A DNA stretch of 6,280 nt from a virus. Lineage: Duplodnaviria; Heunggongvirae; Uroviricota; Caudoviricetes. Position numbers and translations under genes: made by a program. The notes under the pieces are model-generated. The model searched no databases. It saw only the letters and a list, made by a program, of their open reading frames with translations, and was not told the origin of the DNA. The stretch lies in IMG/VR virus record IMGVR_UViG_2690315994_000034. One strand, given 5' to 3'. Positions within the stretch are counted from its first letter, which is position 1, and each line of letters begins with the position of its first letter. This document shows positions 1,121 to 6,048 of this stretch, piece by piece.

Positions 1121-2347
1121 ATGGCTGGCGAACTTAACAAACTGAGCGACAGGAAGTTAAAGGGATTACATGGCATCCCGGCCAGTAAGATTGAGTTCTA
1201 TGCTGATGGTGCCGGGCTGAGTGCCAAGGTAACGAAAGCTGGTGGTATTAGCTGGGTGTTTACTTACCGACTCGACGGGCAGAAGTTGCATCGTCTTACT
1301 CTGGGACGATACCCGGATATGAGCCTCAAAGAGGCCCGTTCCTCGCGTGATAAATGCCGCCAGTGGCTGGCCTCAGGTAAAGACCCAAAGCACCAGTTGG
1401 CGCTAACTACTCAGGAAACGCTTAAACCGGTCACGGTGCAGGAAGCTATCGAATACTGGATACGTGAATATGCAGAAGAGAATCGCGCGAATGTTGAGCG
1501 GCATAAAGCGGAGCTACGCAAACATATTTACCCTTACATTGGAAAAATGGCGCTCGCTGACTGCGAAACCCGATACTGGCTTGACTGCTTTGACAGGATG
1601 AAAAAGAAAACGCCAGTCGCCGCAGGTTATGTGTTCCAGATGTGCAAACAAGCCCTGAAATTCTGCCGGGTTCGTCGCTATGCTGTGAGTACCGCGCTTG
1701 AAGATTTAACAATTCCAGATGTCGGTAAAAAACAGGCAAAAAAAGATCGGGTATTAAACGATAAAGAGGCTGGCGATTTATGGACTGCCATTACCTCTAG
1801 CACTTGCTTCATGCCTTACTACACCAGGCTACTGACAATCTTAATGGTGTTTGGGTGCCGAACGCAGGAGGCCAGACTATCAGAGTGGAGTGAATGGGAT
1901 ATGGATGCCTGGGTCTGGACAGTTCCCAAAGAGCACAGCAAGGGCGGCGAGAAGATTGTAAGACCTGTGCCGGATGCCATGCGCAAATTCATTGAAATAC
2001 TGCATGATGAAACGAAACTATCCGGTCTTTTGCTTGGGTCGGTTAAAGGCAGTGAAGCGGTAAGCCAGTGGGGCCGTAGCGTTTATAAAAAGCTGGGGCA
2101 TTCTGAACCATGGACACTGCACGATCTAAGACGAACTTTAGCAACGCATATGAATAATATGGGTATAGCACCACACGTTGTCGAACAGTTGTTGGGGCAC
2201 TCAATGCCGGGAGTTATGGCGATTTATAACCGTAGTCTGTACTTGCCTGAGAAGCTGGACGCGCTGAATAAGTGGTATGAACGATTAGAACTTCTTGCGG
2301 GTAATCATCAAAATGTGGTTCTGTTACCTGTAATGAATAGAGATTAA
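1121..2347 (+). CDS. int: Tyrosine recombinase, P4-type phage integrase (408 aa)
   Basis: Likely start ATG 1121 (MAGELNKLSDRKLK..); the ORF-track start 1037 is TTG. N-terminal region (LSDRKLKGL..YADGAGLSAKVTKAGGISWVFTYRLDGQKLHRLTLGRYPDMSLKEAR) resembles the arm-binding domain of P4-like integrases. C-terminal catalytic signature present: R in FGCRTQEARLSEW, HDLRRT, LLGHS, tyrosine in AIYNRS. Stop TAA 2345-2347. Confidence 0.9.
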   Translation: MAGELNKLSDRKLKGLHGIPASKIEFYADGAGLSAKVTKAGGISWVFTYRLDGQKLHRLTLGRYPDMSLKEARSSRDKCRQWLASGKDPKHQLALTTQETLKPVTVQEAIEYWIREYAEENRANVERHKAELRKHIYPYIGKMALADCETRYWLDCFDRMKKKTPVAAGYVFQMCKQALKFCRVRRYAVSTALEDLTIPDVGKKQAKKDRVLNDKEAGDLWTAITSSTCFMPYYTRLLTILMVFGCRTQEARLSEWSEWDMDAWVWTVPKEHSKGGEKIVRPVPDAMRKFIEILHDETKLSGLLLGSVKGSEAVSQWGRSVYKKLGHSEPWTLHDLRRTLATHMNNMGIAPHVVEQLLGHSMPGVMAIYNRSLYLPEKLDALNKWYERLELLAGNHQNVVLLPVMNRD

Positions 2348-3508: not shown

Positions 3509-3793
3509 ATGCAAAACCCCATTTTTACCCCGCCTAATCCTGAACAGCGCCGCACCCTTTTAGAAGAGTACGGCTTTAAGTTCGATCGTCGAATCCGTGA
3601 AGAAGAATGTAGCGAGATCACCAGCCTTTCCCGTTCCAGCCGTTGGAAAATGGAGCAGCAAGGACGATTTCCGCCACGCTGCCACTTCGGCCGCAATAGC
3701 TGTGCCTGGCTTCTTTCTGATGTGCTCTGGTGGGTTCGTAATCCGCCTGTAGTAGAGAACGTCAATAACCCATACAGCCGCAAATCTGCTTAA
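3509..3793 (+). CDS. alpA: AlpA-family phage transcriptional regulator / excisionase-like HTH protein (94 aa)
   Basis: Likely start ATG 3509 with GTGGAGG 4 nt upstream; ORF-track start 3467 is TTG. Segment ITSLSRSSRWKMEQQGRFPPRCHFGRNSCAWLLSDVLWWVRN fits the AlpA pattern (LSRSTIYR..G.FP.P...G.R...W...EV..W). Confidence 0.8.
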   Translation: MQNPIFTPPNPEQRRTLLEEYGFKFDRRIREEECSEITSLSRSSRWKMEQQGRFPPRCHFGRNSCAWLLSDVLWWVRNPPVVENVNNPYSRKSA

Positions 3794-4524: not shown

Positions 4525-4546
4525 TGCGTCTTATGCCTAAAATTTT

Positions 4547-4568
4547 GCGCTCCCCCGTTTGGGGGCGC
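4547..4568 (+). terminator. GC-rich hairpin just downstream of the Rha-like gene; weak terminator candidate
   Basis: GCGCTCCCCC / GTTT loop / GGGGGCGC, 23 nt after the stop. No clear T tract on the plus strand (TCAAATCC follows). Confidence 0.25.
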
Positions 4569-4847: not shown

Positions 4848-4879
4848 CCAGTTAAAGGCATTACAGGGAGTAACCCTGA

Positions 4880-5032
4880 TCAGCCATTTTTACAGCCTTT
4901 CAGTACATCGCCAGGGTTAACGGAACAGTCAGGCTTCCAAAGCGAATCGAAAAAACCGAATTGGTACAAAATCCATAAAATAATTAGTGCAATGAGAATG
5001 CGACCTGGGAGGGTATGTAACAGCCAGTTCAT
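4880..5032 (-). CDS. Small single-pass membrane peptide, 50 aa (not in the ORF track)
   Basis: Hand-translated minus strand: ATG at 5030-5032 preceded by GAAGGAG (5041-5047) with 8-nt spacing; stop TGA at 4880-4882. Product MNWLLHTLPGRILIALIILWILYQFGFFDSLWKPDCSVNPGDVLKGCKNG has an 18-residue hydrophobic stretch and a short polar tail with two Cys. Starts 21 nt after the RHH gene stop. Confidence 0.5.
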   Translation of the reverse strand: MNWLLHTLPGRILIALIILWILYQFGFFDSLWKPDCSVNPGDVLKGCKNG

Positions 5033-5053
5033 TATTTTATCTCCTTCTGAAAT

Positions 5054-5245
5054 TCAACCTTTTGGCTCTATGCCGCGCCGCTTTAGTTCTGCCCTAGCTA
5101 ATTCTTTAAACCAGTTACCAAGGGTTAGACCGTCAGAAGTTGCCGCCTCATTTACTTGTTGGCGTAGCTCTTTACTGATTCTGATTTGGAAGGTTGGAGA
5201 CCATCCCTCACCGCGTGGCGATTTATCGCGCTTTAATGTTGACAT
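5054..5245 (-). CDS. Ribbon-helix-helix (Arc/MetJ/CopG-like) DNA-binding protein, 63 aa
   Basis: ATG at 5243-5245, only possible start (in-frame TAG upstream); AGGAG 12 nt upstream. PTFQIRISKELRQQVNEAATSDGLTLGNWFKELARAELKRRG fits strand / helix / G-x-T turn / helix of RHH repressors, compared by eye with P22 Mnt and Arc. Confidence 0.5.
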   Translation of the reverse strand: MSTLKRDKSPRGEGWSPTFQIRISKELRQQVNEAATSDGLTLGNWFKELARAELKRRGIEPKG

Positions 5246-5267
5246 GTACGTACGTAACTCCTATTAT
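5239..5267 (+). promoter_or_regulatory. Near-consensus sigma70 promoter, rightward
   Basis: TTGACA (5239-5244), 17-bp spacer, TATTAT (5262-5267); predicted start near 5274. The -35 box overlaps the RHH start codon on the opposite strand. Confidence 0.5.
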
Positions 5268-5286
5268 CATTGCTGTTACGTACGTA
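5247..5286. promoter_or_regulatory. Twin palindromic operator candidates TACGTACGTA x2
   Basis: Identical 10-bp perfect palindromes at 5247-5256 (inside the promoter spacer) and 5277-5286 (at the predicted transcription start), spaced exactly 30 bp. Confidence 0.5.
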
Positions 5287-5303
5287 CAATATCAGTAGGT
5301 ACA

Positions 5304-5346
5304 GTAAAAAGCAAAGCCCCGCAAGTGTCGTTACCACTCGCAGGGC
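5304..5346 (-). terminator. Strong hairpin, terminator-like on the minus strand
   Basis: GCCCCGCAAGTG (5316-5327), loop TCGTTAC, CACTCGCAGGGC (5335-5346): 12-bp stem with two mismatches. On the minus strand it is followed by TTTGCTTTTTAC; on the plus strand by TTCTAACC (poor). Lies in the leader between the promoter and gene 5385-5588. Confidence 0.4.
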
Positions 5347-5384
5347 TTCTAACCACCAACGATAGAAAGCGTATCGAGGTAGCT

Positions 5385-5588
5385 ATGAGAAATCATACCA
5401 CACACCCGCAAGGGCGGGACTCGCACAACCTGAATAAATACATCTGGCGTTTTATCGCCCTGAGCACGGCACAACCGCGCGTGATTACCATTGAGGCCAC
5501 CAGCGAACAGGAAGCACGCCAGCAATCTCCGGCTGGCTGCGTGATGGTATTCGCTGCCCGTATTCGTCAGGGGTCACATCATGCGTAA
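5385..5588 (+). CDS. Small protein, 67 aa, ends in ARIRQG motif; possibly Ash-like/Icd-like
   Basis: ATG 5385 with GAGG 5 nt upstream; stop TAA 5586-5588 overlaps the next ATG (ATGCGTAA). Shares YxWRF..EATSEQEARQQ..FAARIRQG with the C-terminus of the next ORF. The family name is a vague recollection, not a verified match. Confidence 0.55.
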   Translation: MRNHTTHPQGRDSHNLNKYIWRFIALSTAQPRVITIEATSEQEARQQSPAGCVMVFAARIRQGSHHA

Positions 5589-6048
5589 AAACCGCTTGCA
5601 AAAAATTATCACGGGGCTGTATGCTTCCCCCGTCGCCCACATGGCGACCGGGTTTGACAGCCTGAATACATCTGGCGGACAGCCGCCCACATCCGATAAG
5701 CGGTTTTTTTGTGTCCGTAAACCTACCCATACCCGCATTATGGCGGGGCGTAACGGGGGAGCCTTTGTGCTCGCTGGTTTCCAGATGACCAGTCTGTCAA
5801 CCCTGTTACGTCTCGCCACCATGTTTGACAGCGTAGTAGCGAGACTCCTTAAAATTCATCTGGGAGCCTTTCACATGGCTGTATCCGCACGCCCTTATTT
5901 TGTCTGGCGCTTTATGCAGTGCCAGGAAAAACAAACCTCACTCTTTACCGTCACGGCAGCAACAGAACGCGAAGCCCGCGCCCAGCTGCCGCACGCACAT
6001 CTGATTTTTGTCGCCCGTATTCGTCAGGGGGAAACCTATGCACAATAA
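5581..6048 (+). CDS. Protein of 155 aa whose C-terminal 50 aa are paralogous to the preceding gene
   Basis: ATG 5581 overlaps the upstream stop and sits 7 nt after GGGG, the same arrangement as the next junction at 6038. C-terminus YFVWRF..TAATEREARAQ..FVARIRQG. N-terminal 98 aa are compositionally odd (R/G/S/T-rich), so the real gene may start at ATG 5875 (57 aa). Confidence 0.45.
   Translation: MRKNRLQKIITGLYASPVAHMATGFDSLNTSGGQPPTSDKRFFCVRKPTHTRIMAGRNGGAFVLAGFQMTSLSTLLRLATMFDSVVARLLKIHLGAFHMAVSARPYFVWRFMQCQEKQTSLFTVTAATEREARAQLPHAHLIFVARIRQGETYAQ

Follow-up and report, generated by a model that had tools for sequence, protein, structure and literature searches.

A conserved hairpin in the operon leader of a phage-satellite-like island as the predicted terminator of a RepX-like antisense RNA

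Short antisense RNAs that act on an overlapping message are known from phages, examples being the sar RNA of the P22 immI region and the OOP RNA of lambda. Transcription of each begins within a gene or just behind one and stops at a terminator located in the intergenic region upstream; the site of action of OOP is the 3′ end of cII, not a ribosome-binding site. Neither RNA is known to be related in sequence to the one predicted below. FinP, the antisense RNA of traJ in F-like plasmids, is a two-stem-loop RNA that hides the ribosome-binding site and has loops mirroring those of the mRNA leader, and its terminator hairpin and 3′ tail form a handle for chaperones of the FinO/ProQ family (PMC8136791). 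On IncQ plasmids, the FinP-like RepX, a 75-nt RNA that is antisense to repA's ribosome-binding site, lowers plasmid copy number; mutations in RepX raise copy number, and the RNA is a FinO ligand (PMC8136791). For PICIs, published accounts of control centre on the activator AlpA, and a recent one makes no mention of such an RNA (PMC11773190). Here, we analysed a 6,280-nt stretch of viral DNA, the window, in which a hairpin at 5304–5346 precedes an icd-like gene. We read this hairpin, with a probability of about 0.68, as the terminator stem-loop of a predicted RepX-like antisense RNA of some 80 nt that would span the site at which ribosomes bind the icd-like message.

By its gene content, the window resembles the regulatory end of a phage-satellite or PICI-like island that has integrated (Table 1). 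An int-alpA RNA motif (RF02996; 2356–2424, plus strand) that separates the integrase gene from the ORF after it scored 61.2 bits, above threshold. A strong G+C hairpin, GCGCTCCCCC-GTTT-GGGGGCGC, occupies 4545–4568, just past the stop codon of the Rha-like gene; no T-run comes after it in the plus-strand reading, and in the minus-strand reading AAAATTTT comes next. Judged by its sequence, it may be a terminator between the convergent Rha-like gene, which runs rightward, and the leftward small genes. The 63-aa product of the second of these small genes scored 20.7 bits against the YlcI/YnfO family, for which the NCBIfam cut-off is 30, and gave a weak match to Pfam HicB. The perfect inverted repeat around the rightward −10 is a probable operator pair of an island-specific regulator. 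In related islands, other repeats lie around the rightward −10 and adjoin different leftward genes of the YlcI/YnfO type, which suggests that repressors and operators form exchangeable specificity modules.

Table 1. Positions of features in the window and of the divergent copies of the predicted RNA, with the basis of each assignment
Feature	Position	Strand	Sequence or detail	Basis
yhdJ-type methyltransferase gene			marks chromosome side	
Tyrosine integrase gene	1121–2347			
alpA	3509–3793		followed by Rha-like gene	
Gene for 63-aa protein	5054–5245	−	second of two small leftward genes after Rha-like gene	
Rightward sigma-70 promoter	5239–5267	+	TTGACA-17-TATTAT; start near 5274	promoter scan, 11/12 positions
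Perfect 14-nt inverted repeat	5245–5258 / 5275–5288		TGTACGTACGTAAC / GTTACGTACGTACA; brackets rightward −10	repeat search
Predicted cis-antisense RNA	5306–5386	−	about 81 nt	covariance model R1; ends from promoter and terminator
U-tract	5306–5315	−	UUUGCUUUUU, 3′ of stem	sequence, terminator scan
SL-II, predicted terminator stem-loop	5313–5349	−		fold energies, terminator scan, covariation
SL-II core stem	5346–5335 with 5327–5316	−	loop 5334–5328	fold
SL-II base extension	5349–5347 with 5315–5313	−	GAA with UUU	fold
SL-I of predicted antisense RNA	5350–5385	−		RNAalifold consensus, pair counts
SL-I outer helix	5385–5378 with 5357–5350	−	UAGCUACC with GGUGGUUA	RNAalifold
SL-I inner helix	5376–5372 with 5364–5360	−	CGAUA with UAUCG; 7-nt loop 5371–5365	RNAalifold
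Predicted extended −10 promoter	5392–5400	−	TGgTATGAT (TGGTATGAT)	motif scan, conservation
icd-like ORF	ATG 5385, stop 5588	+	SD GAGG 5376–5379	NCBIfam phage_ICD_like, 69.8 bits
Next ORF, 155 aa	5581–6048	+	start overlaps end of icd-like gene	
Divergent copy, locus L004	1586–1679 of that locus	−		model R1
Divergent copy, locus L133	10470–10557 of that locus	+		model R1
Divergent copy, locus L188	6314–6410 of that locus	+		model R1

The first gene of the rightward operon is the icd-like gene, on which the antisense RNA is presumed to act. In related E. coli loci, DUF4222 and a primase, a DUF927 protein or a RepA-family helicase come after it. In the window, the icd-like domain of the 155-aa ORF that follows is limited to residues 107–149, and a C4 RNA lies inside the 5′ part of this ORF. 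On sequence grounds, the true start of the second icd-like gene is probably near the ATG at 5875, which GGGAG precedes; if so, the 155-aa ORF is likely an over-call. The C4 antisense RNA (RF01695) matched 5736–5823 on the plus strand with 72.6 bits and had no match at 5304–5346. The same region contains, also on the plus strand, the a1-b1 target motif of C4 (RF03163; 5619–5668, 46.8 bits) together with an isrK-like segment that has a terminator at its end (5632–5710; 35.2 bits, below threshold). These three elements make up a P1/P4-type RNA immunity device 350–500 nt to the right of the hairpin. C4, the P4 CI-type immunity RNA, is likewise an RNA-level brake on the rightward operon transcript. 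Unlike the RNA predicted here, however, it is a plus-strand RNA that arises by processing of the operon transcript, and the hairpin is not part of it.

In a repeat search, the hairpin appeared as an inverted repeat of 14 nt (5314–5327 and 5335–5348) with 86% complementarity and a 7-nt gap. As minus-strand RNA, 5304–5346 folds with 12 unbroken pairs at −23.7 kcal/mol (z −6.38), a stability reached by none of 200 shuffles, and the stem lengthens to 15 pairs across 5349–5313. The hairpin is real, far beyond chance. As plus-strand RNA, it is weaker (−13.3 kcal/mol, z −2.8) because two positions become C·A mismatches. A terminator scan called the hairpin on the minus strand only, with 15 pairs, 8 of them G-C, and the tail GCTTTTTACT; it headed the list of 12 terminator-like sites that the scan gave for the whole window and had the longest stem among them. 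These results bear out the first-pass annotation, which had described a stable hairpin that is terminator-like on the opposite strand only and is followed there by a T-rich tract. Indeed, the minus strand has the form of an intrinsic terminator, in which a G+C-rich stem of 12–15 pairs is directly followed at its 3′ side by UUUGCUUUUU. By contrast, no U-tract was found after the hairpin on the plus strand, and a plus-strand attenuator was rejected for this reason. The T-rich tails of the homologues described below are uneven and in many cases interrupted, the longest T-run being 3 or less in 75 of 113, which counts against the antisense-RNA reading. T-runs of up to 7 follow the hairpin in relatives from Serratia and Xenorhabdus.

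The earlier description had also placed the stem about 40–70 nt downstream of the rightward start site, in agreement with a start near 5274, from which the stem extends over about +42 to +72. Its figure of 40 nt between the stem and the Shine-Dalgarno sequence needs correction, as the distance to GAGG (5376–5379) is 30 nt.

We then compared the locus with its relatives. A megablast search with 4850–5650 of the window matched 1403 of 5426 complete E. coli genomes, many of the matches starting exactly at the hairpin; with the Serratia and Xenorhabdus relatives added, the module of icd-like gene and predicted antisense RNA is widespread. Pattern scans of viral and metagenome contigs yielded about 245 loci with a related leader. 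A scan of genome contigs with a 15-base pattern returned chance matches almost exclusively, the usable ones being a few loci from Xenorhabdus and Serratia, and a search of a phage collection for the leader found no relative and one irrelevant 46-nt match. The hairpin is held at the corresponding place in the approximately 245 loci as 64 distinct segments, which differ in bulges and arm lengths. In 62 of these 64, the minus-strand fold is the more stable one, the mean difference being 6.1 kcal/mol, and G·U pairs in their minimum-free-energy structures number 164 for the minus strand as against 17 for the plus strand.

Covariation was evaluated in an alignment of 35 sequences, A1. All 12 pairs of the hairpin vary in this alignment, 10 of them with changes on both sides. 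Over the whole structure, pairing is retained in 96.4% of cells, and in 11 pairs both sides have changed. None of 500 shuffles reached the observed values, and sliding the 3′ partner by 1–3 columns left 33–57% of cells paired. Among the cells that are not Watson-Crick pairs, G·U was counted 124 times in the minus-strand reading and once in the plus-strand reading, counts that overstate the number of independent events since the aligned sequences share descent, so that the 124 cells do not stand for 124 independent changes. The wobble positions differ among hairpin types, and the hairpin has 78 mismatches if read as the plus strand, compared with 30 for the minus strand. A bias of 124:1 is not expected from a double-stranded DNA site or from a plus-strand RNA, and it therefore indicates that the selected RNA is the leftward-transcribed strand. 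A covariance model built from this alignment, R1, scored 91.9 bits on the minus strand at the window locus and 10.6 bits on the plus strand.

Two alternative explanations can be weighed against these data. In the first, the hairpin acts only as a plus-strand leader element, for example by stabilising the 5′ end, by serving RNase processing or by binding a protein, and no antisense RNA is involved. The location of the stem within the predicted rightward transcript and the z-score of its plus-strand fold agree with this explanation. It is nevertheless quite improbable in view of the direction of the G·U pairs, the excess of plus-strand mismatches, the weaker fold in nearly all variants and the low plus-strand score of R1. 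A leader structure controlling the rightward operon had been among the original suggestions; it stands inasmuch as the antisense RNA has its mirror-image target in the mRNA leader, but the G·U bias opposes a plus-strand element. In the second explanation, the palindrome functions as DNA, whether as an operator or other protein-binding site, a cruciform or a single-stranded DNA signal. The inverted repeat does adjoin the promoter–operator region, and the arms of an operator can co-vary. However, the sequence is free to change while pairing is kept, the asymmetries are nearly all G·T on one strand, and the variants have bulges and unequal arms; the operator-like repeats of these islands are the island-specific ones around the −10. 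We consider a DNA-level signal very improbable.

The preferred reading, in which the hairpin terminates a leftward antisense RNA, implies a transcript with a defined 5′ part. We infer the existence of this RNA and both its ends, A5386 at the 5′ side and about 5308–5306 at the 3′ side, from the promoter motif and the terminator. Such an RNA would be complementary to the operon leader, the Shine-Dalgarno sequence GAGG and the first two bases of the icd-like AUG (5385–5386). Besides the hairpin, SL-II, it is predicted to form a second stem-loop, SL-I, that contains the anti-Shine-Dalgarno CCUC. In the collected set, 99.8% of SL-I cells are paired, with two wobble positions that are G·U on the minus strand and A·C on the plus strand; this invariance is no evidence for SL-I, because the pattern used to collect homologues fixed the linker and most of SL-I, including its stem. 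What support the predicted SL-I has comes from three divergent copies and from the IncQ sequence. R1 found the former as second copies in L004 (57 bits), L133 (45 bits) and L188 (40 bits). They retain SL-I in other sequence, with an outer helix of UAGCCA and UGGUUA, a longer inner stem and CCUC in the loop, and may represent remnants or tandem islands. The copies in L133 and L188 face an ORF whose product begins with MAGTQHTQ or MADQQHTQ. An RNase P-type tRNA-like substrate, considered for the motif ACCACCA, was rejected: CCA does not directly follow the stem, and the motif is explained by minus-strand pairing in SL-I.

A candidate promoter for the antisense RNA is the extended −10 motif inside codons 3–6 of the icd-like gene, about 80 nt upstream of the hairpin on the minus strand. 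Its pattern, TGNTATNAT, matches twice in the 6.3-kb window, with 0.9 matches expected on both strands. The other match, TGCTATTAT at 1062–1070 on the plus strand, lies about 50 nt before the integrase ATG at 1121 and is, by its sequence, a candidate int promoter. Among 29 distinct variants of the antisense promoter region, 28 have TATGAT, TATAAT, TATATT or TATTAT as the −10 hexamer, which keeps A2 and T6, and TGn precedes the hexamer in 20. The hexamer persists although codon 2 and the encoded N-terminus vary, Xenorhabdus and Serratia included. As the promoter overlaps coding sequence, part of the conservation of the motif could be due to the protein. No convincing −35 hexamer for the antisense promoter was found at the locus. 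Codons 7–12 of the icd-like gene contain a hairpin, CCCGC-AAGG-GCGGG (5404–5420), that is conserved in E. coli-type islands and occupies, on the minus strand, the place expected of the −35 of the antisense promoter.

Leftward transcription across this region could alternatively serve a protein gene that ends at the hairpin. The ORF list contains a 58-aa ORF (5525–5349) that terminates with an invariant TAG just before the stem. This ORF, however, starts with TTG, is wholly antisense to the icd-like gene and is interrupted in common variants by in-frame stops, such as ATG ATT TAA in all ‘TTAACAT’ variants and ACT TAA in the SL-I loop of Serratia. We give next to no credence to the hairpin as the terminator of such a gene.

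To relate the predicted antisense RNA to known families, we searched Rfam. No family matched over the RNA at threshold, and a scan of the whole window with E values of up to 1 gave no match at the hairpin. A permissive scan of 5230–5460 gave one weak match, to RF00043 (R1162-like plasmid antisense RNA) over 5314–5386, with 21.6 bits and an E value of 0.097 for the 231-nt search, short of the gathering score of 55; otherwise, it returned only noise such as microRNA families. Locating the RF00043 consensus by BLAST against plasmids revealed that it is the sense strand of the IncQ repA leader. This class is described as lying on IncQ-type plasmids, upstream of repA-repC, and the window has in its place an island with integrase and alpA.

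We also performed the reverse comparison, with R1 and with a second model, R2, built from an alignment that includes the divergent copies, A2. The RepX strand of IncQ scored 19.4 bits (E 0.0067) with R1 and 25.5 bits (E ∼1e-4) with R2, the next best scores in 393 kb being 14.5 and 14.7 bits, respectively; the E values are rough, as calibration was shortened, and the background was unrelated DNA preselected for a 15-base piece of the motif. Both matches were the highest in the 393 kb and spanned the full length of the models on the repA-antisense strand of an IncQ1 plasmid. The similarity between the RNA of the window and RepX is thus reciprocal.

The likeness extends to the organization of RepX and of the predicted RNA. 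Each comprises two stem-loops and reaches over the start codon and ribosome-binding site of the gene that leads a replication operon, with an anti-Shine-Dalgarno in SL-I and SL-II as the 3′ hairpin, and the 12-mer GUUGGUGGUUAG stands just before SL-II in both. The −10 hexamer (TATGAT in the window, TATGCT in the divergent copies and TAGGCT in IncQ) is followed after 6 nt by UAGC, the base of SL-I, so the spacing from promoter to helix is equal. The divergent copies share the UAGCCA/UGGUUA helix with RepX, and their SL-I is closer to that of RepX. A further likeness to IncQ is the RepA-family helicase encoded by some related islands. The RNAs differ in setting, the one being predicted on an integrated satellite or PICI-like island with an icd-like target and RepX being encoded on an IncQ plasmid with repA as target. 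They also differ at the 3′ end: a U-tract follows SL-II in the RNA of the window and is absent from RepX (PMC8136791). With its terminator hairpin and U tail, the predicted RNA has the features of a FinO/ProQ handle, and FinP/traJ differs from it in target and in host element. From the sequence comparisons, we read the relation to RepX as distant homology or, at the least, as a close structural and functional analogy.

The extent of similarity among the islands provides a further view of the unit. In 214 of the 245 loci, similarity to the window starts at the tail or the hairpin (5290–5349): in 165 it starts at 5290–5319, comprising the U-tract and the base of the hairpin, and in 49 at 5340–5349, past the variable hairpin top. 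It reaches the leftward regulator gene in only 19 loci. At the right-hand side, most similarity ends at 5550–5599, the end of the icd-like gene. According to these boundaries, a conserved unit that comprises the predicted antisense RNA and the icd-like gene begins on the left with the hairpin, and the operators and leftward regulator gene would form a separate, exchangeable module.

These boundaries also bear on the possibility that the hairpin is an insulating terminator and nothing more, which stops stray leftward transcription from the rightward operon before it reaches the divergent promoters and the regulator gene and releases an RNA that has no function. The terminator-like form on the minus strand would be accounted for, the strand asymmetry suits any minus-strand terminator, and in the window the leftward 63-aa gene starts about 60 nt downstream. 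Moreover, a plausible leftward promoter (−35 TTGCTT at 5314–5309, TGa and TATTGT at 5294–5286) overlaps the U-tract; since read-through would enter the regulator gene, some insulating role is possible. Insulation leaves unexplained, however, the two-stem-loop unit, the −10 at a fixed distance and the full-length likeness to RepX, and the hairpin of most islands lies 150–200 nt from the leftward gene and promoter, which belong to the other, non-conserved module. Insulation as the sole function is therefore unlikely. The first-pass annotation had listed insulation of the divergent promoters among the possible roles of the hairpin, and this is compatible with our data as a side effect of an antisense RNA terminator. 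It had also proposed the terminator of a leftward antisense RNA arising within the small-gene cluster, and it is this reading that the comparative evidence favours, through the strand bias of the G·U pairs, the conserved −10 and the likeness to RepX.

On the antisense reading, transcription would start at the extended −10 that lies among the opening codons of the icd-like gene, from where it would run leftward over the start codon and Shine-Dalgarno sequence. SL-I would form at the 5′ end and display the anti-Shine-Dalgarno, and the RNA would end at the G+C-rich hairpin and U-tract. By analogy with RepX and FinP, the RNA would be made constitutively and pair with the mirror-image stem-loops of the leader, occluding the icd-like ribosome-binding site. 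It would in this way probably repress translation of the rightward operon of the island. As the start of the following ORF lies within the end of the icd-like gene, the downstream replication genes could also be damped. After excision and replication of the island, the higher dose of the RNA gene could give a negative feedback resembling that of plasmids. If this is true, a constitutive antisense RNA adds a layer of quiescence or dosage control beside the C4-type immunity RNA. If the link to RepX is true as well, it suggests that satellites have borrowed a copy-control device from plasmids, and that ProQ of the host or FinO of a plasmid could influence satellite induction.

Searches of the text of freely available papers, by topic and by exact 16–17-mers of both strands, returned no description of this RNA; given that scope, an earlier listing in an sRNA catalogue is possible. 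Cis-antisense countertranscripts are known as a class, and the predicted RNA appears to be an undescribed case. Its covariance model could label a feature that is missing from Rfam. More tentatively, and at odds that we put well short of even, RNAs of this kind may be a general and overlooked RepX-like control of enterobacterial satellites and PICI-like islands, with the loops as specificity determinants and an ancestry shared with IncQ. This would add to AlpA control an RNA brake or, once the island replicates, a dosage feedback. Shared ancestry with RepX would link the replication control of satellites to that of plasmids, possibly through common FinO/ProQ chaperones, and the SL-I loop and SL-II top would set incompatibility or heteroimmunity between co-resident islands.

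Across the islands, the most variable parts of the unit are the SL-I loop (5365–5371) and the SL-II top (5328–5340), with dozens of variants. Their flanks are nearly constant, though partly fixed by the search pattern. Variable loops between steady flanks are what one would expect if the loops set specificity in antisense control.
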